Source of the DNA: Eledone cirrhosa
Taxonomy: Eukaryota
Direction of reading: 5' to 3'
Length of the DNA stretch: 64,000 bases
NCBI GenBank assembly: GCA_964016885.1
Contig: OZ024741.1
Location: 100,006,001-100,070,000 of the forward strand
The position numbers and the translations under genes were made by a program. Positions 10,663 through 64,000 of this stretch are shown one piece after another. The first letter of the stretch is position 1; each line of letters starts with the position of its first letter. The notes under the pieces are model-generated. The model was not told where the DNA came from, did no database searches, and was given only the letters and a program-made list of their open reading frames with translations.

Positions 10663-10705
10663 ACTGAGTCAGGAGCTCTCTTTATCCATTTGGAGTTGTC
10701 GATAA

Positions 10706-36816: not shown

Positions 36817-37145
36817 AGTATATATATATATAAATGTATATATAGTTTATTTTAAAATACACTGTATGCTTAATTAAAAGCATTTTGAAACCAAACGCTC
36901 TTGATTTAAAATAGTGACAATGTCACTTATTTAAATTTTCAGCAAACAGGGGAGATAAACTGCAGATTTCTGTTTCGTACTTTTTGGTACTTATCAAAGC
37001 TCACTACTCCTCCTGTTTGCTGCAAATTATGTGTCTTGTATTCTTATAGAATTCCAGTAATAATCAGGAACTGACTATACAGAGCGGTCGCCGGTCCAGC
37101 AGAAATTGAAAATTATAATTGGTGCTCTGAAATAGCGATATATAT

Positions 37146-38424: not shown

Positions 38425-40327
38425 ATGTTAAACGAAGCTAACGAAAATAGTGGTGGGTGGACAGCGGTAAGAGTTGTAAGCTCGCACGCTTTAGTCCCCC
38501 CTTCCTTCCCAACTAACGTCATAGAGAAGGAAAGAAAAAATAAAATAAAAACAGACGAATGTGCGGAGAAAAATGTCGACGAAAACACAAATCTGGAGAT
38601 TGATTCCAACAACAAAAAAAATATGAAAGAATTGCATGACAATATTAATACCACAAACAAAGAAACAACAAACACAAAAATAACATTTGAAAACAACAAC
38701 ATCATAACAGAAAGCAAAACAGACGACAAAGTCAACACCAATAACATCTCATTTGCACAAACAACAAAAAAATCTTTAACATACATACCTCAAAATATTT
38801 CAGATGTGGCACAAAGAATAAAAAACGCCAAACAATTCATAACTCAAGGAGAAAATGGAGCCTTGTCGGTAAAAATGCCCCAAGAACTCACCAAAGATAT
38901 TGAAAGTCGGACGGTCGTTTTCTGCACCATCAACAACATCTCAAAAAAGCCACAACAACCAACACAAGCAGAAATTAAAGCGGTACTTAGAGAAGTAATT
39001 AATGAAGCCACTTTCATAAGAAGAGACAGGCTCTATGGAAGCCTGGCCATATTATGAAGAACGAATCGGCGGCAAAAAAATATGCTTTGTCGCCGATTCG
39101 TACGACAAAGTTTACCTTTTATCCATCTTATATGGGTAAAAGAACTCAGCGCATATGGCTGGATGCGATGATGCAAGATATGGACTACTGCTGGCTCATA
39201 GCTGGCTTCGTCGATCCAGCGAATGACAACGTGATTTCCATTGGGAAAACCACAGGCAATGCGTTCAGTGGAACAGGTATAGAACTTGTAGTGCAAATGA
39301 AGCCTGAACGCATTGCCCAAATACCCGACAGAATCCTATAAGAGGGCCACGGGTATATAAACATTAGCGTGGATGGGAGAAGGCCGTCCTGTCATATCTG
39401 TGCAGGCAGAGGGCACCTGAAGGCGGCTTGTCCCCAACTCAACAAGAATAAAACCCTGCTACCAACACCAGCTCCACCACCACCACAACAGATAAACAAA
39501 CAACAAAACTCAGTCTCACCCAACCTGTCCCTCCGTAAAACTACACCACCACCACAGCACAAACAGACACAACACATTACCCAAAAACAAAACACAGTGC
39601 CACCCAACCCCTCACTCAATAAAACAACACAACCACCGCAGCCACAACTCACAACACAGTCTAACATAGTGACATCCATCTCCCCGACAAAGAAAATTAA
39701 CACGGAAACATTACCAGCAAACATACCTCTTCCCTCCAACACTGAAGATAACCCAACGAATTCGGAGGAAGAAACGGAGTCCTTCAGACAGAGTAAAAGG
39801 AAAAAAACATGTGCAAAACACACAAGGCCAAACAGCCCCTACCCAAATGTCAACACAATCCAACAAAACACAAAACACCCCTCCAGCAACAAACAAAACC
39901 AAACCTGCCCCTCCTCTTTTCGAAACACTCACACCATCTGAAAAAAAGACATTTCACTATACTTACATCAACAGAAACAATAATAAATTAAATGAACTCA
40001 TAAACAATAACACTTCGGTACAAACCGAAGGGGTAAAGTTTGTTTCTTCAGAAATCTACCCACATTTAAAATTAATAAAGATCCCAATGAACCTCTACCA
40101 AAAACTAAAAGAGGATTTTAAGGAGGACGTAGGACCACCCTCTGTCAAACCCATAAACCGCGTCCTCCTAAAAAGCTTCCCCCCTCCCCTTCCCCTCCCC
40201 ACACAACTCCAAACACCCCAACCCCACCACACACTGACGACCCCACACCACCACAAGACACGCCTTCACCCAACACCCCGACCCCATGGAAGTCGTGCGA
40301 CCCGAACCCCGGGAAGCAGAAAGGTAG
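38425..40327 (+). pseudogene. Element A ORF1 (RRM-like region, CCHC knuckle), disrupted
   Basis: Fragments starting at 38425, 39054, 39369 and 39811 are colinear with B ORF1; CHICAGRGHLKAAC. Confidence 0.85.
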
Positions 40328-40360
40328 GTCTCTACACTCTCCTTTGGCTTTGCCGCCCAC

Positions 40361-43300
40361 ATGGATGTGTTAAGAGTAGGATGTTTGAATGCACGTGGCC
40401 TGGGCTCAACTTGGAAGCAAGCAAAGCTTCTAAATGCCCTCAGGTCACGTGGTATAAATGTAATGGTTATCTGTGAGACTCGGATCAGCGTCGTGCGGCA
40501 GCTGGCTCTCACCTTCGATGACTTTGAGGGGCACGTATCTCTCTGTCAACCTGGAGGAGGGGGTGGGATTGTCGTACTGCTGGAAAAACACCTGGGTCTC
40601 GCCGTACATGTTGTTCACTCGGACCCGGAATGTCGTTTGTTGGTGCTAGACGTTGGCAGTAGTGGAGGTGCGGCCTTGAGACTGGTTGCCGTCTTCTCCC
40701 CTTTCGGAGATGAACGACCCGACCTCTTCCACCGTCTGGAGACTTTTCTGGGAACGTCGCGTTCCCTGCTTCTAGATGCACGTTGGGACTATGCAGGAGC
40801 ATGTCCTAATAGAGGGGGGTGTAACAGCCTCAAAGGGTTACTCGACCGTTTTAACTTGGTCGATAGATATCGTCTAGGTTTTCCAACTGTGCCAACCTGG
40901 ATTTGGACGAACCACAGTGGTCAATCTAGATCGTACTTAGATAGATTCTTAGTTAGAAGTAAGGATAGGGACATATTAAGCTGTCCAGAAATGCTCACGG
41001 TTGGCTATACAGATCACAAATTAGTGAGCTGCGTAGTCAACCTCGAGAGAACACATAGACAGGGTCCCGGTTACTGGAAACTTAATTTGTCTTTACTGGC
41101 AAAAGAGGCTTACAGAGACCGGATTAGCAGATTAGTTAAGGAGAGGTTGACGGGTGCATCTCTCAAAAGAGAGATTAGAACAGAATCAATAAGTTATAGC
41201 AAGATGTTAGCTGCCGATAGGAATAGGAACGAGATAGAATTAACAGGTAAATTAGAAGAGGCAATCAAGAGCGAAGATGTGGCCAGAGTGCTGGCATCGA
41301 GGACGGCCTTGAGCCAGTTTTTCGATGCAAAGCACGAAGGCTGCGTCATTCGAAGTAAAATACGTGCTCTAGGTAATGAGGGGGCCAAAGCCGTTGGCTG
41401 GGCCCGCATGACAGAAGCTAAGAGTGGAAATCGATCCACCATCCGGTCTTTGCAAGACGAGGATGGACAGGTGATCCGGAAGCCTAAACAGATGTGCGAG
41501 GCCTTTCAAAGGCACTTTCCCCGATTGTTCGGGGAGACGGGGGTCCCGTCGGGGACGTGGATTTCGGTCCATACATCGACGGGCTGCCGCGTCTCTCAAG
41601 CAAAGAGGCAGAGTCCTTCGAGGGCCCAATCTCGGCTGATGAGATCGGGGATGCGCTGAGCCAATGCAGCAGACGCAAATCTCCAGGTCTTGATGGTATA
41701 CCTTACGAACTTTATTTAGCAATGCCGGTCTTTTCTCCGAACTCCTCGAAGCACTCTACTGCAATTGGCAGCAGAACGGGAGAATTTCTTGTTCTGTAGC
41801 CAGGGGCGTAGTCTCGCTGGTGAGGAAGGACGAGAACAAGGGGGATAGTATAAATAATTTTCGGCCCATATCTCTGCTAAACACAGAGTTAAAGATTTTG
41901 GCCAAGGTGTTAGCAAAGAGGTTGGCGCTTGTCGTGGGTGGCCTGGTGGGAGATGCGCAGACATGTGCTATCCCATCCAGGTCCATTCACGACAACCTCC
42001 ACGTCATGCGATACATCTTAGAGAGGGTTGGCAACAAACCCGGCTTCGGGGGGAGCCCTGATCAACTTGGGTCAGTCTAAGGCCTTCGATAGGGTCGACC
42101 ATGGTTACCTGGATGCGGTGCTAGCGGCGGCTGGGTTCGGTCCTGTTTTCAGAGGCTGGATCACTGCCTTACATAGCAACCACATCTGTTCTAGGATCAA
42201 GGTGAATGGCTACCTTTCGAAGCCGTTCGAAATCACACGATCCATTCGACAGGGGTGAGTGCCCTCTCTCCTCCCTTCTGTACGTATTGACTCTCGAGTC
42301 TTTACTGAGGAAGTTTGAGTTGTTGCAGGGTATCCCCCTAGAACCAGGATTGAGCAAAGCGGTGTCGGGCTACGCCGATGACGTAACAGTATAGTGTCGA
42401 CCGACTCGGAGATCGAGGCGATCGGTACCTTACTGGAGGAATACGAAAGGTTGTCAGGAGCGAAACTGAACCGAGAAAAATCCATCGGGCTGCAACTCGG
42501 AACGTGGAGAGGCAGACCGATGCCTCCCGATGGTGTCGTCGGACACTGGACGGAGGGCCCGGTGAAGTTGCTCGGGGTCTGGTTTGGACCGGACCTCCAG
42601 GTGGAAAGGAACTGGGGCGAGGTTACGAACAAGGTGTTTGCACTGACCCAGAAATGGGCCAAGTGTAAGCTGTCCCTGAAAGGTCGGGCGGAGGTAGCGA
42701 ACATTTACATAGCGTCCGTCACCTACTACCGCCTGACTGTCGTGCCTTGCCCTAAGGATACACTCACCACCATGGAACGCATGCTCTTGCAATTTCTTTG
42801 GAAGAAGCGCCCTCCTATGGTGAGAAGATTCATCTGCTGCCAACAACCTTCGAAAGGAGGGCTGGGGATGCCGTGGTTGATGATGCGTAGGCACGCATTA
42901 AGGCTACGGCACCTACAGGTATTCCTCACTGGTCAACCGGTGTGGGCTCCGTTCGTGAGACGAGCCTTTCCGAGACTCGTCTCGCTCACCGAGCTGCAGT
43001 CCTGGGTCAAGCAAAGATCCGGAAAACTGGGCGACTTGCACACTGAGTGTGCCCAGGCGCTCAGGGCTCTCTGGCAAGCGGGACCGGCCATCGGTGGAGA
43101 ATCCACCTCGTCATTCTTTAGAGGGCTGGTGGCTAGCAGGGGCGATGACACCATTGGAGAGTCGCTGGACATAGAAGAAGACGACCTGGCCAGACTGTTC
43201 GGTAGGACTTTCGGCCCGGGACCAATGGACAACTTCCAGAAGTTACTGGCCTGGCAGTGCTACCGGGGGGCTCTACCCGTTCGAGAAAAGCTCTACAGAC

Positions 43301-43748
43301 ACGGGCGCCAGGGCAGGGATCCCTCGAAAAAGATTTGCCCTAGATGCGTGCGTCACGAAGAAACCGTTGCGCACGCATTGGTGCACTGTCCGGGCGTGGC
43401 TGGTGGGGCTACGCCGAACGACTGCTGTCGCGGGTGGCGCAGATTCGATTGACCGTCGAGTCCGTGATGACAATCAAGTCGCCTCCCCTCTTCACATAGG
43501 AAGCAAAGGCGGTTTTTCTGTGCGTAATAGCCATGTTGAAAGAGGTTGTTTGGTGGACACGATTGAAAGGTCTGAGGTCAGGCAACTTCCTCTCTGGCCA
43601 TAGTCTGGTCTACTTCTTCCGATATCACTTCGGATGAAGGATAAGAATGGAGAGAGAGGTGCTTGGCCACAGGCAGTTTTATGAAAGGTGGGTGATAGTG
43701 GCGAGAATGGCTCGTGTAAATGGTCCTTCTCTGTATACCATCCTGTAG
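40361..43748 (+). pseudogene. Element A ORF2 (APE-RT-CCHC), disrupted
   Basis: Multiple frameshifts; the APE GDWN motif is deleted (SRSLLL|DARWD); YADD present. Confidence 0.92.
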
Positions 43749-43962
43749 GTAAAGAAGTGAAGGAGAGGGGAGCACCTTCTCCATGTGCTCCCCGGGCAAA
43801 GGATTGCACACTTTTTCGGGGGTGTGTGCAACCCCCATCACATCCCCTCGCTTTTGAGGTTGTTTTTGATTATTTTCATTTTATAACCTTTTTACTCGGT
43901 TTTATGTAAACTCCCCCTTTGTATTTGTCCCTTCTTATTATACCTTTATGGTAAATAAAGAA

Positions 43963-43975
43963 ATCTATCTATCTT

Positions 43976-44026
<51 letters not shown>

Positions 44027-44033
44027 CTCTATC
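43963..44033. repeat. (ATCT)n microsatellite between elements A and B
   Basis: Direct reading. Confidence 0.98.
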
Positions 44034-44250
44034 AGTCGTGTGTCACTTCGCGGAGAAGTTTCCGTTAATTTATGTAAGGAAAAAACGTGAGTTTTTAGTT
44101 CAATTTTATATCATTGTGTAACTTGACCACCCGTCTGGACCTTCAGGTGGTGGGTCAACTCATTTTCGCCCCTTCAGGGGCGGAATATCCGTTTAAAAAA
44201 TTTTTCTCCATCGAATCTTGGAAAAAATATTGTAAAATTTTGATTACGTT

Positions 44251-46167
44251 ATGAACGCTGCGTCCAACGATAATGGTGGTGGAGAGGCGGTAAGACTACA
44301 AAGCTCGCAGTCAACAACGTCTTCTTCACTAGATACTATAGAGATGGAAAGACAAAATGAAAATAAAAAAACGAATTCACATCCAAACAACACAAATGAC
44401 ACCAAACAGCTCAATGACAACAAAAATAACAGCAAAACCAATAATGATGATAAAAGCAACAATGATAACAACAACAAAGAAAAAAATAAAGACAACGCCA
44501 ATAACACCAGCATCAAAGACAACAACAACACCAAGGAAAATACGGATGATACCAACATCGGTGACAACAAGAATAACAACAAGAATAACAACAATAATGA
44601 CAACACCACCAATACGGATTCCACAAAGAAACCAAAAATCTCCTTTGCGGAGAAAGTTCAAAAGAAAGAACAATTGATATATCTCGACATAACAAATGCT
44701 GAACACCTTTTAAAGGACGCTAAGAGATATGTCACCTTCGAAAAAAATGGTGCTTTCAGCATCAATTCTCCGGTAGAAATTCGCAAGGAAACTGCTCTCA
44801 AAACGATAGTTTTTAGGACAGTTTCCAATTCTACCCGAAAACCAGTCCAATTGTCACAGAAAGATATTGAACTGGTTTTCAAAGATTCAATGAATGATAT
44901 TGCATTCATTCAAAGAAGCAAACTTTTTGGGAGTATTTCGGTACTGATGAAGGATCAATTGACGGCCCAAAATTACTCTGTGTCGCCAATTGTATCCAAC
45001 CTGTACACCTTTTTCCCTACATACATGGGAAAAAGGACACAAAAGATCAGAATCACAAGTGTCACACCAAAGGTGAACATATGGTGGATACTGTGCGGCT
45101 TCATCAATTTTGATGAAGACAGAATACTGTCAGTAGGCAAGTCCCCCAGAGATGTATTCAATGGGACTAGCATTGAAGTTCTGGTGCAAATGAGCCCAGA
45201 GCGAATAGCTATGATCCCACAGCGTGTACTCCTGGACGGACTTACCTACATAAACCTTTCGGTTGAGGGTAGGCGGCCTTCATGTTACCATTGCTTTAGC
45301 AGGGGTCACCTGAGGGCTTCCTGTCCTAAACTAATGAACCAAAAAAAGGCTCTTCTGCCAACACCCATCAAAACAACACAACCACCAACACCACCACTAC
45401 AACAACAACACCAACACACAAAAATAACCACAACAAACACAGTCCCACCCAACCTCACTCCACCTAAAACCACTGCAAAATCACATACAGACACAACAGC
45501 TCCCCAAGACATACCCCTCCCCAATCACACAGACGATACAACAGATGAGGCTATCTCGCCATCACCCAGTGAAGACGAGGGAGAACCCCATCGCTCGAAA
45601 AGAAAGAAAAGACATCACAAAAGCAAAAAACCAGCAAACACTACCACAAACATACAACCACCAACACAAACAACAAAAATATCACAAACAAAACCCCCAC
45701 CTCCTGAAAACAAAATACCTACAACAAAACGAAAGCACACACAAGAACTACAGACAAAAACAAACACAACACAAGAAAATTACACTTACACTTACATAAA
45801 CACTGAAAACAAAACACTAATGGAGACCATTACGAACGACCCTTCGGTTTTCACCGAAGGGAAAACTTTCGCCCACTCTATAAAAAATAGCAAAAAAATG
45901 AACCTAAAACTGATTAGGGTCCCTATACAAACTTATAGGTCCCTAAAAGAAACATTTGAGAAGGATGTGGGGAATTCCTGCGTGAAACCACTCAACCGCG
46001 TCCTTCTCAAATGCCTCCCCACCCCAGACACCCCCATCCCACCAGACCCCACCCCACCAAACATCTGCGTCCCCACCCCACCGGAAACCACCACCCATCC
46101 AGACAACCCCTCCAACACCCCCATGGAAATCGTGCGGCCTGGTCCCCAGGAGGCGAAGGGTGAGTGA
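44251..46167 (+). CDS. Tx1-like ORF1 nucleic-acid-binding protein, 638 aa
   Basis: Open ORF with N-rich N-terminus, RRM-like region (RSKLFGSISVLM), C-x2-C-x4-H-x4-C (CYHCFSRGHLRASC), P/T-rich linker and a conserved C-terminal block. Confidence 0.9.
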   Translation: MNAASNDNGGGEAVRLQSSQSTTSSSLDTIEMERQNENKKTNSHPNNTNDTKQLNDNKNNSKTNNDDKSNNDNNNKEKNKDNANNTSIKDNNNTKENTDDTNIGDNKNNNKNNNNNDNTTNTDSTKKPKISFAEKVQKKEQLIYLDITNAEHLLKDAKRYVTFEKNGAFSINSPVEIRKETALKTIVFRTVSNSTRKPVQLSQKDIELVFKDSMNDIAFIQRSKLFGSISVLMKDQLTAQNYSVSPIVSNLYTFFPTYMGKRTQKIRITSVTPKVNIWWILCGFINFDEDRILSVGKSPRDVFNGTSIEVLVQMSPERIAMIPQRVLLDGLTYINLSVEGRRPSCYHCFSRGHLRASCPKLMNQKKALLPTPIKTTQPPTPPLQQQHQHTKITTTNTVPPNLTPPKTTAKSHTDTTAPQDIPLPNHTDDTTDEAISPSPSEDEGEPHRSKRKKRHHKSKKPANTTTNIQPPTQTTKISQTKPPPPENKIPTTKRKHTQELQTKTNTTQENYTYTYINTENKTLMETITNDPSVFTEGKTFAHSIKNSKKMNLKLIRVPIQTYRSLKETFEKDVGNSCVKPLNRVLLKCLPTPDTPIPPDPTPPNICVPTPPETTTHPDNPSNTPMEIVRPGPQEAKGE

Positions 46168-46200
46168 TCTCTTTTCCTCTTTTAACTTTTCAGCACCAAC

Positions 46201-49200
46201 ATGGCCAATATAAGAGTTGGATGTGTGAACGTACGCGGCCTGGGGATGCCCTGGAAACAGGGCAAACTCTTAAACGACCTCAGGTCGCACAGTTTGGATG
46301 TGGTAGCCATTTGCGAGTCCAGGATCCACGGCGAGCGACAGCTGGCCCCCATCTTCGATGACTTTGAGATCTACGCATCTCTCTGTCAACCGGGGGGTGG
46401 GGGCGGAGTTGCCGTTTTGCTGCGGAAACACCTGGGCCTCGTAACACAGACGGTACATCTGGACCCGGAGGGTCGACTGGTGGTCCTAGACGTTGACGGT
46501 AGTGAAGGTGGAGCGTTCAGGCTGGTGGCCGCATATGCCCCATCCGGGACACCGCGGCCAGACTTCTTCAAACGTCTAGAGACTTTTCTGGGAACGTCCC
46601 GCTCCTTGCTTTTAGTGGGGGACTGGAATGGAATCCTAGATGCACGTTGGGACTATGTGGGAGCATGTCCCGACAAAGGGGGGTGTAACAGCCTCAAACA
46701 GTTAATCGACCGATTTGACCTGGCCGATAGATATCGACTAGATTTTCCGACTGCGCCAATGTGGACGTGGAGTAATCGTAGCGGAACATCTAGATCGTAC
46801 CTAGATAGGGTTCTAGTTAGAAATAAGGATAGGGACATGTTAAGCTGTCCACAAATGTTCATGGTTGCCTATTCAGATCACAAACTAGTGACCTGCATGG
46901 CCAACCTTGATAGAACCCATAGACAAGGACCCGGCTACTGGAAGCTGAACTTGTCGTTACCGACAAGCAAAGCCTACAGTAGACGGATTAGCACTTTAGT
47001 TAAACAGCACTTGACAGGGGCCATTGTCAACAACAGATGGTGGTACTCTCTCAAGAGGGCAGTTAGATTAGACTCGATAGTTTTTAGTAAAGAATTAGCG
47101 TTAGATAGAAATAGAACCGAGAAGGAACTGGTAGATAAAGTAGAAGAGGCAATTAGAAGTGGCAACGTAGCCAGCGTGCTAGCAACGAGAACGGCCTTGG
47201 ACCAGTTCTTCGACGCAAAGCACGAGGGCTGCGTTGTCAGAAGCAAAATACGTGCTCTGGGAAACGAGGGAGCCAAAGCTGTTAGCTGGGCCCGGGTGAC
47301 GGAGGCAAAAAGTGGCAACAAGTCCACGATTCGGTCTTTGAAGGACCAAAACGGACGCGTGATACGTGAGCCGAAGCAGATGTGTGCGGCTTTTCAGCGG
47401 CACTTTGCTCGGCTGTTCGGGGGGAGCGGCGCGCCGGGAGAGGCTATGGATTTCGGTCCATACCTCGACGGCCTACCGCGACTCTCGGACAGTGGGGCGA
47501 AGTTCTGCGAAAAGCCGATTTCAGCCACTGAGATAGGGGACGCGCTGAGCCAATGCGGCAAACGCAAATCTCCAGGTCTCGACGGTCTACCCTACGAATT
47601 TTACGTAGCAATGCCGGACTTATTCTCCGGTCTCCTGGAAGCGGTCTACTGCAACTGGCAACAGAACGGGAGAATTCCCAGTTCTGTAACCGGGGGCGTG
47701 GTCACACTAATCAGGAAGGACGAGAATAAGGGGGATGACATAGGCAACTTCCGGCCCATAACTCTGCTAAACACAGAGTTACAGATTTTGGCCAAGGTGT
47801 TGGCAAAGAGGCTGGCGCTTGTCGTCGAGAACCTGGTGGGAGAAGCGCAGACATGCGCGATCCCGACCAGGTCCATACACGACAACCTCCACCTCATGCG
47901 ATACATCATAGAGAGGGTAGGGTGTAAACCCGGCTTCGGTGGGGCCCTGATCAACTTGGATCAGTCTAAGGCTTTCGATAGGGTTGACCATCGTTACCTG
48001 GATGCGGTGCTCGAGGCGGCAGGCTTCGGACCCGTGTTCAGGGGCTGGATTGCTGCAATGCACAACAGCAACATCTGCTCAAGGGTCAAGGTGAACGGTT
48101 ACCTCTCGGAGCCGTTCCATATTACGCGATCCATTCGACAGGGATGCCCTCTCTCCTCCCTTCTGTACGTACTGACTCTCGAGCCACTACTGCGGAAGCT
48201 GGAGCTATTGCAGGGCATCCCTCTGGAACCGGGACTGCGGAAAGCGGCGTCGGCCTACGCCGACGACGTGACAGTAATGGTGACGAGCGCCTCGCAAATC
48301 GAGGAAGTCGGCACCTTACTAAAGGAATACGAAAGTCTCACAGGAGCGAAGCTGAACCGGGACAAGTCCATCGGTTTGCAACTCGGATCGTGGAGAGGCA
48401 GACCGATGCCTTCCGATGGCGTCGTCGGACGCTGGACGGAAGGACCGGTAAAGCTGCTCGGGGTCTGGTTTGGTCCGGACCTCCAGGTGGAGAAGAACTG
48501 GAACGAAGTGACGGCCAAGGTGTTTGCACTCACCCAGAAGTGGGCCGAGTGCAAACTATCCTTGAAAGGTCGAGCGGAGGTGGCGAACACTTTTATAGCG
48601 TCCGCCATCTACTACCGCTTGACCGTCGTGCCTTGTCCAGCCAAAACGCTCGCCAAAATGGAGCGCGCCCTCTTCCAATTCCTTTGGAAGAGGCGGGCTC
48701 ATTTGGTAAGAAGATCCATCTGCTGCCAACACCCTTCTAACGGAGGGCTGGGGATGCCGTGGTTGACGATGCGCAAACACGCGCTCAGGCTGCGGCATCT
48801 CTACGTATTCCTCACCGGACAACCGGTGTGGGCCCCGTTCGTGAGGCGAGCCTTCCCACGACTCGTCTCGCTGACCGAGCTGCAGTCCTGGGTCAAGCAG
48901 AGACCGAGGAAAATGGGCGACTGGCACATCGAATGTGCTCAGGCGCTCACAGCCCTCTGGCAGGCGGACCCAGCGGTCAGTGGAGACTCCACTTCGTCAT
49001 TCTATAGAGGGTTGGTCCGCAGCAAGTGCGACGACGCGCTCGGTGAAACTCTGGGCGTGGAGGAAGATGAACTGGCCAGTCTGTTCGGTAGGACCTTCCG
49101 CCCGGGACCGATGGACAACTTCCAAAAGTCCCTGGCCTGGCAGTGCTACCGAGGAGCTCTACCAGTTCGAGACAAGCTCTACAGACATGGGCGCCCGGGC

Positions 49201-49638
49201 AGGGACCCTGCAAAAAAGATCTGTCCGAGGTGCGTGCGAGACGAAGAAACCGTCGCGCACGCATTCATACACTGCCCGGGCGTCACTGACCTGTGGGGCT
49301 ATGTAGAACGACTATTGTCGCGGGTGGGACCAATCCAGTTGACCACCGAGTCCATTGTCATGATCAAACCGCCACCCTCCTTCAAAAACGAAGGAGAGGC
49401 GGTTTTCCTTTGTGTGATAGCTATGGCGAAAGAGGTTGTATGGTGGACAAGGTTGAAAGGGCTGAGGTCAGACACCTTTCTCTCCGGCCAACAACTGATT
49501 CTTTTTTTCAAATACCACTTTGGAAGAAGAATCAGGATGGAGAGAGAGGTGCTGTACCCCAGCAAGTTTTATGAAAGGTGGGTGAAAGTGGCGAGAATGG
49601 CCCGAGTGAATGGGCCTTCTCTCTATATCAGCCTGTAG
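46201..49638 (+). CDS. Tx1-like ORF2 polyprotein (AP-endonuclease, reverse transcriptase, C-terminal CCHC), 1145 aa
   Basis: APE: NVRG, CES, YAP, GDWN, LDR, SDH. GPGYWKLN; KSPGLDG. RT: LDQSKAFDRVDH, RQGCPLS, YADD. CPRC...ETVAHAFIHC. Confidence 0.97.
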   Translation: MANIRVGCVNVRGLGMPWKQGKLLNDLRSHSLDVVAICESRIHGERQLAPIFDDFEIYASLCQPGGGGGVAVLLRKHLGLVTQTVHLDPEGRLVVLDVDGSEGGAFRLVAAYAPSGTPRPDFFKRLETFLGTSRSLLLVGDWNGILDARWDYVGACPDKGGCNSLKQLIDRFDLADRYRLDFPTAPMWTWSNRSGTSRSYLDRVLVRNKDRDMLSCPQMFMVAYSDHKLVTCMANLDRTHRQGPGYWKLNLSLPTSKAYSRRISTLVKQHLTGAIVNNRWWYSLKRAVRLDSIVFSKELALDRNRTEKELVDKVEEAIRSGNVASVLATRTALDQFFDAKHEGCVVRSKIRALGNEGAKAVSWARVTEAKSGNKSTIRSLKDQNGRVIREPKQMCAAFQRHFARLFGGSGAPGEAMDFGPYLDGLPRLSDSGAKFCEKPISATEIGDALSQCGKRKSPGLDGLPYEFYVAMPDLFSGLLEAVYCNWQQNGRIPSSVTGGVVTLIRKDENKGDDIGNFRPITLLNTELQILAKVLAKRLALVVENLVGEAQTCAIPTRSIHDNLHLMRYIIERVGCKPGFGGALINLDQSKAFDRVDHRYLDAVLEAAGFGPVFRGWIAAMHNSNICSRVKVNGYLSEPFHITRSIRQGCPLSSLLYVLTLEPLLRKLELLQGIPLEPGLRKAASAYADDVTVMVTSASQIEEVGTLLKEYESLTGAKLNRDKSIGLQLGSWRGRPMPSDGVVGRWTEGPVKLLGVWFGPDLQVEKNWNEVTAKVFALTQKWAECKLSLKGRAEVANTFIASAIYYRLTVVPCPAKTLAKMERALFQFLWKRRAHLVRRSICCQHPSNGGLGMPWLTMRKHALRLRHLYVFLTGQPVWAPFVRRAFPRLVSLTELQSWVKQRPRKMGDWHIECAQALTALWQADPAVSGDSTSSFYRGLVRSKCDDALGETLGVEEDELASLFGRTFRPGPMDNFQKSLAWQCYRGALPVRDKLYRHGRPGRDPAKKICPRCVRDEETVAHAFIHCPGVTDLWGYVERLLSRVGPIQLTTESIVMIKPPPSFKNEGEAVFLCVIAMAKEVVWWTRLKGLRSDTFLSGQQLILFFKYHFGRRIRMEREVLYPSKFYERWVKVARMARVNGPSLYISL

Positions 49639-49782
49639 GTTGAGGAAAAGGAGGAGGAGAGGAAAGGAGTACAAGCTCTTCGTACTCCTGGAGATGAGGG
49701 TTGCACATTTTTTTCGGGGGTCTGTGTTACCCATATAAACTGTCTCCCTCTATTGGGGAAAATCGACTAACTTTTAAATTCC

Positions 49783-50308
49783 AAAATGGTTTAATTAGGA
49801 ATAAAAGAGTATTAGTGATTGTATGGGTGAGTATTCAGTTGTGGTTTTAAGTTTTTAAGTTTTTACCGGTTGCGCATTTCTAAATGCTTTTCAAAAATAA
49901 TTTTGAGATTGAGTGTCCGTGCTGTTTGCTCTGATCTGATAGTTTTGGGAATTCTACCTGTTTTTATGTTAAAAAAGTGGCTCCAATTTGCAAAAATTCT
50001 TGTGGTCAAAACAATTTTGATTGGTCGGTAGAGGTCATGTGAATGTAAAAAATTGATTTTGCGCCAAGACTGTTTTTATGTTAAAAAAGTGGCTCCAGCA
50101 AAAATTCTTGTGGTCAAAACAATTTTGATTGGTCGGTTGAGGTCATGTGAATGTAAAAAATTGATTTTGCGCCAAGACTGTTTTTATGTTAAAAAAGTGG
50201 CTCCAGCAAAAATTCTTGTGGTCAAAACAATTTTGATTGGTCGGTAGAGGTCATGTGAATAAAAAATTGGTTTTGCGCCAAGATTGAGAAATGACTCTTT
50301 CACAACAA

Positions 50309-50372
<64 letters not shown>

Positions 50373-50447
50373 TAGTAGTAGTAGTAGTAAGGTGTTTGAT
50401 GTTGTGATAATGGTTAGCAGCGATGTGTGTCAAATGGCTATTGAGAT

Positions 50448-50511
<64 letters not shown>

Positions 50512-52329: not shown

Positions 52330-54308
52330 ATGGCTGAGCCACGCCCTCCAGCGATATGTCTGCTGTCGTGCGACAACGACGTAATAGTTGAGAGGAGCGC
52401 TACAGCGAAATTAACACAAATTGATAACACAAACACCACCACAAACAATGTAAACAAAGACACCAATGATACCAATGAGAACTCTAATTTTGAAAAAAAT
52501 GACAGTAACAGCAACAACGGAAATACAGATAACAAAAAAAAAATAACAAATGCAACAACTATATCAACACCATTAACATGAAAACAAATAGCGACAACAT
52601 CAACAGCAACAATACCAACTTCATCGAGAACAACGGTGGCAACAAAGACAACAATGATAACAGCGACAGTGATAACAACAACACCAACAGGAACAACGAC
52701 AACAACAAAAACAGCTCCAACGAAAACAAGAAGAACACTTTCGCTGCGGCAGCAGCAAAAAAGAGGCCATGCTTCAACATAGACCTCTCAAACAAAGATG
52801 AAAAGTTGGCCCGGGCATGGAAGCTCATCAAGCAAGAGCAAACCTAGCCCAACTTAACTGTCCCGGTAGAAGTTATTGAGGCAGTGGAGCGCAAAACGGT
52901 GCATTATAGATGCATCTCAGCACAAACCAAAAGGGCAGCTTTAATCCCACAAGAAGATGTCGAAGTCGCGCTGAGGTGCATCAGAGAAGACACCCAATAC
53001 ATAGAGAGGGGCAGACAGTACGGCACCATTTCGGTGTTGTTCAAGTCAGAAGCCCTCGCTATGAAACACGCTATGAGTCCTTGCAAAACCAGCAAGGTCA
53101 TAATGTACCACACCCACATGGGAAAAAGAACGGCCCGTCTCCGCATTCCCAGAATCCCACCAGTACTTGACATGGGGTGGCTTCTGGGATGTGTGATTGT
53201 GGAGGGGACGGATACCGTCCCTATAGAAGTGACCAAAACGGCCAGAGAGGAATGGTCCCGGTTGACCTGGAGATCCTCTCCAGATCAGGCCCGAGAATGT
53301 GAAGACAATCCCGGACCAAATCCGCCTTCAGAATGGGACGGTCATTCGCATTATGACCGAAGGCAAAAGGCCGCAGTGTTTTGTTTGTGGGGGAAAAAAC
53401 CCATCTGCGAGCCTTCTGCCGTCAACTGCTGAAAGAGGCAAGGGCTCGAAAGGCCCCACTGCTGCCGACGCCGGCGCGAGGACCACAACCAACACCAGCA
53501 CCAGCAAAACCACCAACAACAACACCAATAGAAAGACCACCACCAACATTGACGAAACAGAGGGAAGAACCGAGAACAGCTGTCAAATTCCCCCTCCCCG
53601 CAAAATACACACACCAATAAAACCATAAAAATACATACAGACACACTTACAGACCCATCATCTACCAGTAGTGAAGATAAGGGAAAACCAAAATCCCCCA
53701 AAATACAAAAAAGGAAACACAAAAAGAAAAAAAAAACTCAACAAAGCACGAAATCACCCCTAATAAAAAACGCAGACACCAGCCACGCAAACATCTCTCC
53801 AACAACACCAACATCAACACCACTATCACCATCACCAGAATCCCCCAAACGCAAACAACCTAAACAGACGCAAGAACAAATATACACACAAACATCTGAA
53901 ACTACAGACACCGCACTCACAACAAACACAGACACAACCGAAACAACACCACCAAAACCACCACCACCACAGGCACGCAAACAAATAAAATCACACCAAC
54001 AAAACATACAAAACTTCGTGCTCGTCAGGAGGGCCAACAAGGAACTGATGGCCCTCGTAGCACGAAGTGAAAATATACAAAAAGAGGGGGACATTTTTAA
54101 ATCGAGCACATTTCGCGTGCCGGAAGATTTGGTTCTGGTGCGAATGTCGATCGATTTATACAAAGAAATACGAGACAGCTTTCCACTGGATGTGGGAACC
54201 CCGAAAGTAAAACCTACTTCAAGACTTTTAAAGAGGTTCCCAAAACAAACCCCACAAACTATGGAGGTCGATCAACCCGACGTTCACAAGAACCCGGAAG
54301 GTAAGTAA
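52330..54308 (+). pseudogene. Element C ORF1, disrupted
   Basis: RGRQYGTISVLF, EGKRPQCFVCG..THLRAFC and C-terminal FPLDVG across several frames. Confidence 0.85.
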
Positions 54309-54340
54309 ACCTTTCCTCTCTCTCTTTTTAACCTGCCAAC

Positions 54341-57300
54341 ATGGCCGTATTAAGAGTAGGATATTCGAGGCCCGGGATCGTCCTGGAAGCAGGGTCACCT
54401 GCTAAACGACCTCAGGTCTCTAGAAATGGATGTAATTGCCGTCAGTGAGACCAGGATTTCCGACACGCTCGCACTAGCCCCCATTTTCGACGACTATCAG
54501 ATCTTTGCATCTGTTAGCCGGCCGGGAATGGGAGGCGGGGTGGCAGTGCTGTTTAGGAAAGGCCTGGATCTCGAGGTAAGGTCGATCTTCCGTGACCCGG
54601 ACGGGAAGTTGGTGGTCCTGGACGTGAACAATAACGAAGGTGGTGCCTTTAGACTGGTGGCCGTCTATGCTCCTACTGGGGCAGGACGGCCGAACTTCTT
54701 TAGACGCCTGGAAGAGTTTCTGGGCTCGCCTCGCCCTTTACTGTTAGCGGGGGACTGGAACGGCATCTTAGACGCCCGCTGGGACTGTGTGGGAGTATCC
54801 TATAGGAACGGGGGATGCAAAGGCCTCAAGAACCAGATCAGCCAGTTCCAACTGTCTGACAGGTACCGACTAGATTTCCCTAATGCGCCAGTGTGGACCT
54901 GGGCTAACCGCATAGGGTCATCTAGATCGTATATAGACAGGATATTCATTAGGAAAATAGACAGAAATAGTGTAAGCTGTCCACGTTTTGAAACGGTCGA
55001 CTATTCAGATCACAAGTTTGTGATCTGTATGGTCGACCTAGATAAGACGCGTAGGTTAGGACCTGGTTACTGGAAGCTAAACATGTCATTTCCGGCACGT
55101 AACGCGTACAGGGACAAGGTAAACTATTTAGTTAAGAAAAAGTTGACAGGGGGAGTCGTCAACAATAGATGGTGGAGGGCTCTCAAAAGAGAGATTAGAG
55201 GAATGTCGATAGAGTTTAGCAAAGAAGCAGCGTTAGAGAAAAATAGAAAGGAGGAGAGTTGGTAGATAAGTTAGACGATGCTATGGGTAGTGGCATTGCA
55301 ACTGACGTGTTAGCGGCGAGAATGGTATTAGACCATTTCTTCAATGCGAAACACGAAGGCTCCATTGTCAGAGCTAAGGCGCGTGCTCTGAGAAACGAGG
55401 GAACCAAAGCTGTTCGATGCACCCACGCGGCAGAGGCGCGGCGTGGTAATAAATCTACGATTCGGCTTTTGACGGACCGAGACGAACACGAGCTGAGCGA
55501 TTCCAAGAGGATGTGTGAGGCCTTTCGCCAACATTTTGCTCGGTTGTTCGGTGGAAGTGGCGGGTCAGAGATGGTGGCGGACTTCAGTCCCTACCTCGAT
55601 GGCTTGCCGCAACTCTCGACGGCTGACGCTGGGCGCTGCGAAAGGACAATTACTTCAGCCGAGATTCAGGATGCCCTTGTCGGCTGCATGAGGCGCAAGT
55701 CACCCGGTTTGGATGGTCTGCCCTACCACTTTACCTAAATATGCCAGACTTGTTCTCCAATCTCCTCGAAGCCCTCTACTGCAACTGGCAGCAAAACGGG
55801 AGTATTCCCAGTTCTGTGAGCCGGGCGTAGTGACGCTGATAAGGAAAGACGAGAACAAGAGGGACACATTAGACAATTTCAGGCCCATAACTCTGCTCAA
55901 CATATAGTTTAAGATTTTGACCAGGGTGCTAGCGAAGAGGTTGGCGCTTGTCGTCGGGGATTTGGTTGGGGAGGCGAAAACTTGCGCAATCCCAATCAGG
56001 TCCATACACGAAAACCTCCACCTAATGCGATACATCATAGAGAGGGTAGGGTGTAAACCTGGCTTCGGTGGGGCTCTGATCAATTTAGATCAATCGAAAG
56101 AATTCGATAGGGTCGACCATCGGTACCTGGAGGCTGCCCTCAAGGCGGCTGGCTTCGGCTCCGTCTTCAGAAGCTGGATCGCTGCAATGGACAGCGGCAC
56201 CTGCTCGAAGGTAAACATTAATGGCCGCCTCTCGGAACCGTATCAGGTCTCCCGATCGGTACGTCAAGGGTGCCCTCTCTCCTCCCTTCTGTACGTATTG
56301 ACTCTGGAGCCTTTACTGCGGAAGCTGGAGCTGTTGCAGGGCATCCCGTTCGAACCGGGACGCGGAAAGGCTGTGTCGGCTTATGCGGACGACACCACCG
56401 TGATGGTGTCGGACACCTCAGAAATGGAGGTGGTCGGCAACTTATTGGAGGAATATGAAAGGTTGACGGGAGTAAAACTTTACCCGGAAAAGTCGGTGGG
56501 CTTGCAACTCGGCACCTGGAGAGGCAAGTCCGTGCCGTCCAACAGCGTGGTTAGGCGCTGGACGGTCGGACCGGTAAAGTTTCTAGGGGCTTGGTTTGGG
56601 CCAGATCTCCAGGTGGATAAGAATTGGGACGAAGTGACGGGCAGGGTAGCCAGTGTCACCCAGAAATGGGCTGGGATGAAGCTATCACTGAAAGGTCGGG
56701 CGGAGGTGGCGAACGCGTACATCGCGTCCGTCATCTACTACCGTCTGACTGTCGTCCCTTGCCCCCGTTTGCGCCTCGCCATCTTGGAGCGGCTCCTCTT
56801 CAAATTCTTGTGGAGGGGCCAGATTCCGCTGGTGAGGCGGTCCATCTGCAGCCAGCACCCTCTACGTGGAGGGTTGGGCATGCCGTGGCTAATGATGCGC
56901 AGGCACGCGCTGAGGCTGCGGCATCTCCAGATATTCTGCCTAAACGGTGAACAGGTGTGGTCGCCGTTTGTCAGACGGGCCTTCCGCAGCTAGTTTCTTT
57001 GACTGAGCTGCAGTCCTGGGTCAAGAAGAGACCGAGACTTGGTGACTGGCATCTGGAATGTTGCCAGGCACTCACTGCCCTCTACTAGGCGGGCAATGCG
57101 GTCAGTGGATCTTCCACTCTCGAGTTCTATAGAGGATTAGTGGGTGGAAAGTGCGACCACGCACTCGGAGAGGCTCTGGGAGTCAACGAAGTCGAACTAA
57201 CCAGTCTGTACCGGAGGACTTTCGAGCCGGCGACGATGGATAATTTCCAAAAATCCATCGCTTGGCAGTGCTACCGGGGGGCACTGCCAGTTCGAGATAA

Positions 57301-57755
57301 ACTCTACAGGCACGGAAGTGCTGTCAGACGTGCCTGCCCTAGATGAGCGCAGAGCGACGAAACCGTTCTGCACGTACTCGTCCAGTGTCCGTGCATTACT
57401 GGCTTGTGGAGTTATATTAAACAGCTGTTGTCGCGTGTAGAACGGATCCGGCTATCGGCCGAGTCCATAGTGAAGATCGACAAGCCGCCTTCTTTTGGCC
57501 AGGAAGGGCAGGCACTTTTCCTCTCTCTGGTGGCAGTAGCGAAAGAGGATGTATGGTGGACGAGGTTGAAAGGACTGAAGACAGACACTTTTCTCTTCGG
57601 CCAATCCCTCATCAACTTTTTCAAGTTTCACTTGGAAAGGAAGGTGAAGGTGGAGAGAGAAGTGCTTCCCCCTAGTACGTTTGCTGAAAGGTGTGTGAAT
57701 GTGGCGAGAATGGCCCGTGTGAGTCGGCCTACTCTGGTCATGAGGCTGTCGGTAG
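54341..57755 (+). pseudogene. Element C ORF2, disrupted
   Basis: APE (GDWN, SDH) and RT (RQGCPLS, YADD) fragments with stops and frameshifts. Confidence 0.92.
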
Positions 57756-57997
57756 GTAAATTTGTGGAGGAGAGGGTTGCCCTTCCAGGGTGCTCTCGAA
57801 GCGTCGGGTCGTTCAGTATTGAGCGAACCCTGGGTGGTCATACCCCCTATTGGGGAATTTTTTCTTGTAATTTTCTTGTTACTTTATTGTTACTTTGTTA
57901 TTTCATATTGTTTACTCGATTTTTCTGTAAAACCCCACTGTCCCAGTCTTTTGTATTGTCCCCTATATGTCGGCCCTTGTGGCCAATAAATGAAATC

Positions 57998-58228: not shown

Positions 58229-60213
58229 ATGGCTACTTCACCTCTGCACGAAGCAGCTGAAAGCCTTCCTCACAAAATAACACCTCACACCGACACCACC
58301 ATTGTAAATGTTACTACGTTTGCCAACACAAAAAAAAAAATATAAGCAGTAGCAATATTTTAAATTTGTCTCAGGCAGACATTCATTTCCCGCCATTACC
58401 AATGACTGCAGGTGTTAAAGCCTCCACCACCACCACCACCGCGACAACCACCACCACCACCACCACCGCGACAACAGAAACAAAACAAGAAAAAAATAAA
58501 TTAACTCGTGATGTCGAAATGAAATCAAGCAAAATGGTCTCTTCCCCACCAAAGACGACTGACGTCACCACCACAACTGAAACTAAAATTAATATTAACG
58601 ATAGCAACAACAACAACAATGACATTATAAAACCCCCTCTCAGTTTCGCCAGAGTAGCAAAACAATTCGAAGCATTTACCGTAACTCAAGAAGATTTAGA
58701 AAATGCCAAACAAATGGTAAAGAAAGATGGGTACAGGGTCAGCCTCCCCCCCCCCCCCACCTAATAAAATGGAGCATCGGCGCCTATGCACCGTGTCGTA
58801 TAGAACAATAAATGTAAAATCGCGCCGAGTGGAACGGGCATCCGAGTCCCAAATCCAAAAAGCTTTGGGACATGTGTGGGCAAGAAAAACCCACATCAGA
58901 CGTGGGCAAAAGTATGGAACCGTGGATGTGTTCTTTGAAACACCAGAGGAGGCTAGAGAACACTCCATGGCCCCATTAAAAAGTGACGACTTCACACTCG
59001 TCCCAAGCTATTGTGGCCAGAGACTTGTAAAGATCAGGGTGACCCACGTTCCACCGGCCATCGAAATTCCCTGGCTAATAGCGGCTGTCCTCGCCGGCAT
59101 CGAGGCCAGCACGAAAATAATAACAATAGCAAAAGAAAAGCAGGAAAACTGGTCCGGATCTGGGATGGAGCTCCTGATCCAAGCGGACCAAAAAAGCATT
59201 GAGGAGATCCCAGAGGTAATAGACCTCACTGACGGCAGCCACCTCACGGTAATTGTCGAGGGCAGAAGACCTAGGTGTGTCGTTTGTGGTGAAGGAACCC
59301 ACCTAAGGGCCTTCTGCCCTCAGGCTAAAAGGTTGAGGCCACCTCTCCTACCCACCCCAGTGACACAACCATCAACACCACCAGTAGCAGAGATGCCAGC
59401 AACAACTGTAGCAGCAACAACAGAAGCAACTATAACAGCAACAACCCCAGCAACAGTAGCAAAACTAACACCACTACCACCACCAGCAAAACCAACACCA
59501 CCACCACCCGACGCTTCAGAACTAGCACCAGCGCCTACACCATCCACCACACCACAACCAAAACTAACGGCTGTGGAGGATTTTCCACTCCCCGGCCTAT
59601 CACAACTGGAGACAGATTGTGACGACGAGGAGTGGGAAACGATATCCAGAAAAAAAAAAGAAACCAAAAAAGAAAAAATTCTCTTCCTTCCCCCTCCAAA
59701 AACAAAATACAGAGGGAAACAAATAAACTAAGAAACAAAAAAGTTAGGACAGATATGCCACCATCCACACCAGCATCAACAACCCCATCAACCCAAACAC
59801 CAACACCATCACCATCATTAACTCCAACACCACCATCACCTACACCACAAAAGTCACCAAAATGCGAAACAGAAACAAACCCACAACAAACGCAAACAAA
59901 ACAAAACAACCAAAACGATACACACTACACAGCATTAAATTTGAACAAGCAATTATTGCACTACATCCAACACAACACCAGCATCACAGAAAAAGACTAC
60001 ACAACAACCCCAAAATTCACGCCACCTCCACACATACAAATCACTCGCATCACACAGAAAACGTACATGACACTAAAACAAAAATTCCCCAAAGACATCG
60101 GAGACTTCCGACAAGCACTCTCCAGGAGGATTTATAAGGACATCCTTCCTGAGGAGGCCACAAGCAGTGAAAAGGATGGAAAAACCGTCCTTCCCCTACG
60201 AGAAGTAAGGTAA
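58229..60213 (+). pseudogene. Element D ORF1, frameshifted near homopolymer runs
   Basis: RGQKYGTVDVFF, CVVCGEGTHLRAFC and FPKDIG in consecutive frames. Confidence 0.85.
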
Positions 60214-60247
60214 GTGGTCTTTCCCATCTTTTCCACTCCTTTTCAAC

Positions 60248-63200: not shown

Positions 63201-63668
63201 TTGCCAGTTCGGGATAAACTCTACAGGCATGGAGGTGCCGTCAGCCGGGCATGTCCGAGATGCGCGCAGGGCGACGAAACCGTCCTGCACGCACTCGTCC
63301 AGTGTTTGAGCATTGCTGACTTGTGGGTTTATGTCGAACACCTGCTGTCACGTGTAGGACGGATCCAGCTATCAGCTGAGTCCATCGTGAGGATTGCCCC
63401 GCCCCCTTCCTTTAGCCTGGAAGGGCAGGCAGTTTTTATCTGTCTGGTGGCCATGGCGAAAGAGATAGTATGGTGGACACGTTTGAAAGGGCTGAAGACG
63501 AGCACTTACCTCTTCGGTGATGCCCTGATTAACTTTTTCAAATTTCATTTGAAAAGGAAAATCAGGGTAGAGAGGGAAGTGCTCTCTTCCCAGCATTTTG
63601 TTGAAAGATGGGTGAGAGAAGCAAGTATGGCCCGAATGAATGGGCCTTCTCTGAGTATGTGTCTGTAA
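60248..63668 (+). pseudogene. Element D ORF2, two premature TAG stops and one frameshift
   Basis: Stops at 61709 and 62544, frameshift in the G-run near 62260; otherwise colinear with B ORF2. Confidence 0.93.
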
Positions 63669-64000
63669 ATTAAAGGTGGAAAACTGGGAGAGGGCACTTG
63701 CCCTGGTTGTCAGGGCCACTGTGGTCTTTTAATGGGCTTTCTCCACAAATGTCCCTTGGAAGTCTCCCCCCTATTCGGGAATTTTTCTTTGTTATTTTAT
63801 TTCAACCTCTGTTTTTTTACACGCAGAAATGCCCATTTGTACCGTCCTGTATTGTCCTGTACTGTCCTTAATGTCTACTTTATGTGAACCCTTGTGGTTA
63901 ATAAAGAAAACATTATTATTATTATTACAGTTGCATTTATCTTGCTTTATGTTCATACGAGTTATAACCAAGTCACAACCAGTGACCTCAAGAGACAACA

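Follow-up and report, generated by a model that had tools for sequence, protein, structure and literature searches.

A predicted long-range RNA helix flanking ORF2 in an L1/Tx1-type LINE clade and its possible action on a U1-type donor and the ORF2 start codon

In bicistronic LINEs, the excess of ORF1p over ORF2p, the initiation of ORF2 and the passage of an intron-less genomic RNA through nuclear quality control are open questions. HAL1 elements are ORF1-only derivatives of L1, and L1-type RNA can reportedly be spliced, as in the human L1 spliced retrocopies referred to as SpIREs. Among LTR elements, the removal of a ~3-kb intron is described as leading to Gag over-production in Drosophila copia, and in the Arabidopsis Ty1/Copia element EVD, U1 is described as both splicing and blocking premature termination (PMC5580714). 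RNA structure is described as restricting U1 access in MLV, whereby unspliced genomic RNA survives (PMC2794156), and unspliced 5' splice-site motifs as causing U1-70K/ZFC3H1 retention (PMC9074902). The Tx1 group includes the microsatellite-targeting Kibi/Koshi of the L1 clade and crocodilian Tx1 as described members (PMC4494074, PMC5203782).

The window analysed here, a stretch of 64,000 nt from Eledone cirrhosa, carries four elements, A to D (Table 1), whose source clade of L1/Tx1-type LINEs has 11,317 ORF2 starts in the 3.0-Gb genome. The clade is large, young, very abundant and active. Its nearest relatives are one at 70% and one protein group at ~40%, and the median identity between its lineages is 67% over the first 500 nt of ORF2. 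The Pfam domains of ORF2 (PF03372, PF00078, PF13966) correspond to an APE endonuclease, a reverse transcriptase and a C-terminal zinc finger, a combination that fits a LINE of the L1 clade/Tx1 group; the best solved relative of ORF2 is human L1 ORF2p (residues 4-856, E 4.5e-50). ORF1 of element B gave feature matches of 0.89-0.92 to zf-CCHC and ZCCHC3-like clusters of a protein atlas and no match in Pfam, and is read with moderate confidence as carrying an RRM and a CCHC knuckle, as in the L1 clade/Tx1 group. With the Tx1 group as described, the clade shares two ORFs, an APE, RT and zinc finger, an ORF1 of RRM/CCHC type, tails made of microsatellite and copies stacked in tandem (PMC4494074, PMC5203782). 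The tails are TATC-type in the A/B-side lineages and ATT in the C/D-side lineages, and the window copies are stacked on like tails. Three features set the clade apart from 28-36 distant L1/Tx1 relatives from metagenomes: a donor-type motif at the ORF1 end (none above 7/9 in 28 relatives), a helix flanking ORF2 (none in 28, z no lower than -2.3) and a UAG-rich tract (absent from 36). The available sections of the Kibi/Koshi and crocodilian Tx1 descriptions mention no donor, helix or UAG tract (PMC4494074, PMC5203782).

As in copia and EVD, a conserved U1 site lies at the boundary between the structural and the enzymatic gene; copia and EVD are described as single-ORF LTR elements whose splicing is proven (PMC5580714), whereas the present elements are bicistronic LINEs with putative splicing and a predicted helix over both sites. 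The MLV structure is described as a local upstream stem-loop (PMC2794156), whereas the predicted duplex of the present elements has a range of 3.4 kb, could not form before the 3'UTR has been transcribed and in addition overlies a start codon and a stop codon. ORF2 translation is likewise affected by RNA structure close to the ORF1/ORF2 junction in SART1 and mammalian L1, but the available text describes a local structure or an unknown looping and no pairing with the 3'UTR (PMC5972666). A literature search found no description for LINEs of a control design in which an ORF2-flanking helix hides a donor and a start codon.

Table 1. Positions of the features in the window
Feature	Element	Position	Strand	Remark
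5' arm	A	40292..40382	+	-86.9 kcal/mol, 69 pairs with own 3' arm
Donor-type motif	A	40321..40329	+	phase 2
UAG-rich tract	A	40761..41361	+	22 TAG
3' arm	A	43723..43816	+	predicted duplex
AATAAA + (TATC)n tail	A	43954..44030	+	element B starts directly after
ORF1	B	44251..46167	+	intact, 638 aa; RRM/CCHC-type gag-like protein, low-complexity ends
5' arm	B	46128..46222	+	last ~10 ORF1 codons, donor, spacer, ORF2 ATG + 7 codons
Donor-type (U1-complementary) motif over ORF1 end	B	46157..46165	+	phase 1
ORF2	B	46201..49638	+	intact, 1145 aa; APE endonuclease, reverse transcriptase, zf-RVT
UAG-rich tract	B	46601..47201	+	30 TAG, all out of frame
3' arm	B	49613..49706	+	last 8 ORF2 codons, stop, purine run, first 3'UTR hairpin
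5' arm	C	54269..54362	+	-86.9 kcal/mol, 67 pairs
Donor-type motif	C	54298..54306	+	phase 1
UAG-rich tract	C	54741..55341	+	25 TAG
3' arm	C	57726..57819	+	homologous ORF2 stop (57749-57751) mutated in copy
Extra outer helix arm	D	60081..60109	+	complementary to 63758-63786
5' arm	D	60178..60269	+	-78.2 kcal/mol, 68 pairs
Donor-type motif	D	60207..60215	+	phase 2
UAG-rich tract	D	60648..61248	+	30 TAG
3' arm	D	63643..63736	+	ORF2 ends TAA, no AG at stop

The sequence-only reading held that ORF2 is bracketed like an intron in all four elements, by a donor at the ORF1 end and an AG|GT at the ORF2 end. The eight splice-like motifs that it named are all in place, and its donor-to-ATG distance of 37-41 nt agrees with the measured 37, 41, 40 and 38 nt in A, B, C and D. 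The donor also proved to be kept across the clade as a U1-type site. Of the first 30 unselected genomic matches, 28 carry it 25-44 nt upstream of the ORF2 ATG, the two others being a 5'-truncated variant and a point variant, and 37/40 copies picked for diversity score at least 7/9 against the U1-complementary consensus. Among the representatives of 14 lineages, no change occurs at positions -1, +1, +2 and +6, and positions -2 and +5 are kept in 13/14, against 1/14 invariant among the fourfold sites used as control; fourfold identity between 90% clusters has a median of 0.53 (43 pairs). The donor occupies three phases relative to the ORF1 stop (Table 1; phase 0 in lineage L179). Since the stop shifts relative to the donor, the stop codon alone does not explain it, and the alignments indicate a 5' splice-site consensus conserved over the ORF1 stop more than by chance.

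The proposed AG|GT at the ORF2 end is present in the A, B and C groups, as TAG followed by GT, but is not clade-wide. Its AG belongs to the ORF2 stop codon TAG, which other lineages follow with GC, AC or TT, and the largest family, that of D, ends ORF2 in TAA; AG is found at the stop in 17/19 copies. The AAG|GT taken as the equivalent site of D (63675) lies 7 nt past the stop at a non-homologous position, nor does the site taken for C (57755) coincide with its homologous stop. As an acceptor, the stop TAG ranks 3rd to 46th among the 98-134 YAGs per element (13/16 copies having TAG). The surrounding sequence, described as otherwise unalignable, is not quite so, the ORF1 tail peptide and the 3'UTR being alignable across lineages.

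ORF2 is instead bracketed by two complementary arms of ~95 nt each. The 5' arm consists of the ORF1 tail, the donor, the spacer and the ORF2 start, and the 3' arm of the ORF2 end, the stop and the 3'UTR. Of the intron-like reading, the bracketing and the U1-type donor stand, but the bracket is that of a covarying long-range helix. This helix alone is enough to explain why a pyrimidine tract follows the donor, why pyrimidines precede the stop and GT follows it, and why there is a purine run. The modelling makes the existence of this RNA helix very probable. The predicted duplex has 62-80 pairs and -71 to -100 kcal/mol in 18/18 copies, with segment-shuffled z of -3.9 to -9.3 in 12/12. Own partner arms beat those of other lineages (p=2e-5, 8 clusters), and did so too when the comparison was confined to the ORF2 start/end part (p=2e-4), to the ORF1 tail/distal UTR part (p=3e-5) or to the spacer part (p=0.001). 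A helix over the whole 3'UTR (p=0.085 in the same test) was rejected except for the extra helix of D. Six column pairs have changes on both sides, some of which alter encoded residues, and one compensatory pair passes through a G-U intermediate (G-C, G-U in L093, A-U in D). In the true register 193/304 cells are paired, against 86-117 in slid registers. In 10 of the 15 scorable copies, none of the ~457 element windows pairs better with the spacer than the start of the 3'UTR, lineage L065 being unscorable because of its tandem neighbour. The lineage L180-L190, held out from the derivation of the model, has the donor, the helix (-94.6) and the UAG tract. Compensatory changes and lineage-specific complementarity are thus both found. 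The sense strand is more stable than the antisense strand in 15/18, as expected for RNA with G-U pairs.

Other folds compete with the helix. The predicted fold of the whole 3,696-nt RNA of element B pairs 46101-46197 with 49638-49745 and is devoid of the inner ORF2 start/end part, and rival folds displace the helix in ~5/13 copies when wider windows are folded. The spacer helix is weak in L065, a 304-copy family (-18, p 0.07-0.2). The main arms were not among the five longest pairs of an ungapped repeat search without G-U, and Rfam at gathering score gave 4 weak matches in 44000-50000, none in the helix arms at threshold. Zipping raises the predicted opening cost of the donor in 13/15 copies, of the AUG in 12/15 and of the stop-AG region in 13/15. 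For the donor the rise is of a few kcal/mol, with drops in L093 and L074, so that the predicted masking is moderate, and its three central bases are unpaired in 7/18 duplexes.

Common to all lineages is also a synonymous UAG-rich tract inside ORF2, with 21-28 TAG against 7.4-9.6 expected in 9/9 intact ORF2s, which exceeds all 500 synonymous shuffles. A role as an out-of-frame stop trap was ruled out, TAA and TGA not being enriched.

Sequence and computation show the two arms and how they covary, a donor that is kept, and a UAG tract. From these we infer a switch, about as likely as not, in which the helix would mask both the U1-type donor and the start codon of ORF2. U1 would bind the donor during the transcription of ORF2, and the UAG array, 400-1000 nt downstream, would limit its use by binding what is presumably an hnRNP A1-type silencer. 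Once transcribed, the 3' arm would pair over the donor, the spacer, the AUG and the stop-AG. The zipped, complete, unspliced RNA would then escape splicing and U1-dependent nuclear retention, and shortened transcripts, their donor still exposed, would be held back. In the cytoplasm, the ORF1 ribosome would melt the outer third of the helix on reaching its stop. The remainder would throttle re-initiation at ORF2, so that little ORF2p is made, and the 3' arm, once freed, could refold into a local hairpin. Against a role of U1, ORF2 is nearly free of AATAAA/ATTAAA and leaves little premature polyadenylation to suppress; premature polyadenylation inside ORF2 was rejected as a candidate on the same count. 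The ORF1 stop, the kept U1 site and both the AUG and the stop of ORF2 lie together under a single predicted, covarying helix, which tolerates amino-acid changes at the two ends of the protein as its price. It offers a precise, rescue-testable cis-element for the ORF ratio, ORF2 initiation and RNA quality control, and the UAG array a second one for finding the host protein involved. Other LINE clades appear worth screening for ORF2-flanking complementarity.

A doubtful extension of this switch adds splicing. U1 would be loaded at the ORF1 stop, after which the RNA would either splice ORF2 out or zip its flanks, hiding both splice sites and the ORF2 AUG; some transcripts would be spliced from the donor to the ORF2-stop AG before the arms pair, losing a 3.4-3.5 kb intron to give an ORF1-only mRNA. 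If so, only full-length RNA would be licensed for export and ORF2 translation would depend on ORF1 ribosomes; the ORF1:ORF2 ratio, the control of transcript completeness and the enforcement of cis preference would all rest on one and the same structure. The strong kept donor and the frequent AG at the stop are consistent with such partial splicing, which we hold rather improbable, as is the purine run after the stop, which resembles an exonic enhancer; however, the stop codon and the helix already account for the TAG, the pyrimidines, the GT and the purine run. Joining the donor to the stop-AG ends ORF1 within 2 residues in 10/14 lineages, over three phases, against 5.4 expected by partner swap (p=0.002 before allowing for kinship), but on ORF2 trees no more than ~4-5 of the matches are independent, against 3-4 mismatches. 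The stop-AG is no leading acceptor and is missing from the largest family, although this family, D, has a strong pyrimidine tract and a CAG at ~63827 that its sister lineages lack. The search for genomic copies precisely without ORF2, a check proposed with the sequence-only reading, went against it, with 0 spliced retrocopies for 5,844 unspliced copies in six families (B 302, D 2,464, L073 group 1,440, L065 304, A 867, C 467), although a spliced RNA would keep the whole 3'UTR; the search covered exon-2 starts other than those of the form G+non-T or non-G+T. None of its 18 non-canonical matches was a spliced copy: one was an inversion, and the rest were small indels, point changes or chance matches. 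Unlike the case of SpIREs and HAL1, no spliced or ORF1-only genomic copy joined at the ORF1-end donor was found; this absence is a weak argument if ORF2p works strictly in cis.

Alternatively, the helix would serve translation or reverse transcription only, the donor-like motif being kept for another reason. It could hold the ORF2 stop beside its AUG for ribosome recycling or re-initiation, or gate the 3' hairpin for ORF2p binding in cis; both variants taken together are unlikely. The AUG and the stop do lie in a fixed register within the helix, with an invariant core, and the distal part of the 3' arm can alternatively fold into a hairpin of its own. The coupling of ORF2 to ORF1 in SART1 is described as dependent on RNA structure, and for L1 a looping has been proposed (PMC5972666). 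Such a role leaves unexplained both the UAG tract and a donor kept across three phases, whether paired or unpaired, with a partner that follows the donor variant.

Chance and shared descent, by which Y-rich and R-rich tracts would pair by composition and motifs be inherited without selection, are very improbable and largely refuted: the lineages are related and their low-complexity Y/R tracts cross-pair well (non-cognate mean -72), but shuffles that preserve composition, the exchange of partners in three separate sub-helices, the six compensatory pairs, the held-out lineage and half-saturated fourfold sites all argue against them.

Contigs of four runs of unrecorded kind, compared with element B, gave no 46159-49639 joint among the 15 of 225 joints listed, which counts neither way. 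No clear A>G excess, as an imprint of A-to-I editing, was seen in the arms or the tract of 19 B and 20 D genomic copies. A conserved acceptor inside ORF2 (best candidate 46615, TAG in 16/16) was discarded: it rests on a Leu codon, 22/103 Leu columns are equally invariant, and neither 46615 nor the end of ORF2 showed a synonymous-constraint peak. The variation in donor phase rules out a fusion of ORF1 to ORF2 by splicing. Finally, the 3'UTR is T-rich and contains 23 AG against 60 expected, a weak signal of AG depletion since GA is low too (39).

ORF2 of the four L1/Tx1-type LINE copies in the window, A to D (table below), is very probably bracketed by a long-range RNA helix, predicted between its two flanks. 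The spacer, running from a U1-type GTRRGT motif over the ORF1 end (the donor) to the ORF2 ATG, shows lineage-by-lineage complementarity to the purine run past the stop. Co-folding extended this pairing in both directions, the last ~10 codons of ORF1 pairing with 3'UTR positions +35 to +70 and the first 7 ORF2 codons with the last 8. The full arms were defined as donor-32 to ATG+21 and stop-26 to +70; in 18 of 18 copies they gave 62-80 predicted pairs and -71 to -100 kcal/mol (z = -3.9 to -9.3 against shuffles preserving the composition of each segment). The arm of each lineage preferred its own partner (p=2e-5, 8 clusters), as did the coding part and the ORF1-tail part taken separately. Six column pairs of the ungapped core changed on both sides, some of these changes altering ORF2 residue 2 in A and D and one forming a series from G-C through G-U to A-U along the D group. 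The post-stop GT pairs with the AC directly before the ATG and the two change together, while the AUG and the ORF2 stop keep a fixed register in the helix. The sense strand paired better than the antisense in 15/18. Folded whole, the 3,696-nt B region had a minimum-energy structure with the outer and middle helix but without the inner part. A lineage outside model building (L180-L190) has its own spacer with a matching 3' arm (-94.6), a donor and a TAG-rich tract inside ORF2. The middle helix is poor in family L065, and with wider windows the long helix lost to rival folds in about 5 of 13 copies. Such ORF2-flank pairing was found in none of 28 distant relatives, and the arms had no Rfam match at threshold.

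LINE elements of the array and open reading frames of element B
Feature	Position in window	Strand	Remarks
Element A	about 38.2-44.0 kb	+	LINE, head-to-tail array with B, C and D
Element B	44.0-49.8 kb	+	LINE, intact
Element C	52.1-58.0 kb	+	LINE
Element D	58.0-63.9 kb	+	LINE; array A-D is the end of the window
Element B ORF1	44251-46167	+	intact
Element B ORF2	46201-49638	+	intact

The ORF2 of element B carries APE, RT and zf-RVT domains and has human L1 ORF2p as its best solved relative; ORF1 resembles RRM/CCHC proteins. A degenerate ORF2-start pattern has 11,317 matches in the 3.0 Gb genome (reversed control 0). At least 40 near-identical copies of the B junction stand in the genome, which marks the clade as young and active.

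The sequence-only reading had likened ORF2 to an intron, with a donor at the ORF1 end and AG/GT at the ORF2 end. Its motifs were all recovered where it had placed them, and donor conservation is real: 28 of the first 30 genomic matches, taken without selection, carry the motif ahead of the ORF2 ATG, and in 37 of 40 diverse copies it scores at least 7/9 against the U1 consensus. These copies form 10 clusters at 90% identity, between which fourfold-site identity has a median of 53%. Over 14 representatives, donor positions -1, +1, +2 and +6 are invariant, against 1 of 14 fourfold sites. In the same zone of 28 distant L1/Tx1 relatives that have an intact ORF2, donor scores peaked at 7 in one and at no more than 6 in the others. 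The three common variants at +2 to +4 are the three stop codons. This could point to a coding cause, but phase-2 lineages alone have the ORF1 stop within the donor; it comes two codons past the donor in B, C, L093 and L180, and in L179 the ORF1 frame runs on through the motif.

The other end of the supposed intron held less well. The AG is that of the ORF2 stop. It is followed by GT in groups A, B and C and by GC, AC or TT in other lineages, and D, the largest family (2,464 exact donors), stops with TAA. Each element has about 100-130 YAGs, among which this stop-AG takes rank 3 to 46, and the 3' site is weaker than had been claimed. The observation holds in part and its interpretation finds partial support: linked features do flank ORF2 and the donor is kept, the bracket that emerges being the predicted helix.

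Partial splicing yielding an ORF1-only mRNA would be compatible with the helix, yet we consider it unlikely. In its favour, if the donor were joined to the stop-AG, ORF1 would terminate within two residues in 10 of 14 lineages, in three phases, against 5.4 with swapped partners (p=0.002); on trees, however, the phase matches reduce to about 4-5 independent cases versus 3-4 mismatches. At about 63827, D has a good candidate acceptor that its TAG-keeping sisters do not share. Genomic copies precisely lacking ORF2, sought with patterns joining the exon end to letters excluding the intron, numbered 0 in six families, against unspliced counts of 302 (B), 2,464 (D), 1,440 (L073 group), 304 (L065), 867 (A) and 467 (C), which is weak evidence if ORF2p acts only in cis. 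The candidate acceptor of D consists of a strong pyrimidine tract and CAG in its 3'UTR (63800-63830), where sister lineages have CAC or TAC, coinciding with the AG loss at its ORF2 stop.

A sharply bounded TAG excess occupies ORF2 nt 400-1000 on the sense strand, with 21-28 TAG per 500 nt versus 7.4-9.6 expected from synonymous shuffles in 9/9 intact ORF2s; TAA and TGA are flat there. These TAGs are split evenly over the two off-frames and prefer the context (A/U)UAG(A/U). In copies that are not independent, A>G changes affected 1/532 (family B) and 0/537 (family D) TAGs in the tract, and 10/466 and 17/601 outside it. None of 36 relatives has the tract (z at most 2.5). Proteins of the hnRNP A1 and Musashi types bind UAG arrays.

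A masking switch, whose functional steps we infer throughout, is the role favoured, at roughly an even chance, since the modelled zipped state raises the opening cost of the donor (13/15), the AUG (12/15) and the stop-AG region (13/15), competes with hairpins that each arm can form locally, and can arise only once the 3'UTR is made. U1 would occupy the donor early and the UAG array would damp splicing; the helix would then hide the donor, restricting nuclear exit to RNA that is complete and unspliced. ORF2 translation would be rare, following the melting of the outer helix by ORF1 ribosomes. A purely translational or RT-related role of the helix is slightly less probable than partial splicing.

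In the accessible parts of the sources, the closest analogues are Drosophila copia and Arabidopsis EVD (PMC5580714), MLV donor attenuation (PMC2794156), U1-70K/ZFC3H1 retention of RNAs bearing 5'SS motifs (PMC9074902), SART1 and L1 re-initiation (PMC5972666), and Tx1 targeting (PMC4494074, PMC5203782). Active L1-Tx1 families are listed for an octopus in PMC13282606, the accessible text of which contains neither 'splic' nor 'ORF1'. A literature search, with most subscription journals, Repbase Reports and supplements outside its scope, returned no ORF2-flanking helix or ORF1-stop donor in a LINE. The element kind is known and the RNA architecture is new.

The RT region of B holds another pair of complementary segments, ~384 nt from each other (47571-47594 with 47979-48002), which recurs in A (41682/42090), C (55698/56108) and D (61617/62025), with 70-83% complementarity in the four; it may represent a further RNA helix under conservation or a side effect of peptide-motif conservation. 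At the 3' end of the copies an AATAAA precedes a microsatellite, either TATC-type or ATT. At 38100-63950 the elements are stacked head-to-tail, A and B sharing (TATC)n and C and D sharing (ATT)n as the microsatellite they sit on; across the genome, many copies lie ~5.8-5.9 kb from one another. The 3'UTR of B is broken by a non-coding element (49783-51025) whose terminal inverted repeats (~345 nt) are 98.9% identical and enclose tandem units of ~114 nt; the AATAAA and tail of B are missing from the window. Copies of L065 are concentrated near the ends of large contigs (C1 0-31 Mb, 431-434 Mb; C2 0-21 Mb, 395-414 Mb), a clustering that families A, C and D do not show. In the 3' ORF2 tree L076 joins L073, but in the 5' tree the two are apart, which suggests recombination between subfamilies. 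Elsewhere in the window, RT and GIY-YIG-like fragments, rearranged and spread over both strands (9382-11612), are presumably Penelope-like, and fragments with a restriction-like endonuclease motif (32397-33141 and 37131-37773) are taken to be R4/Dong-like LINE ends. Low-complexity frames at 14869-15682 (- strand) resemble the ORF1 start of the A-D clade on the opposite strand.
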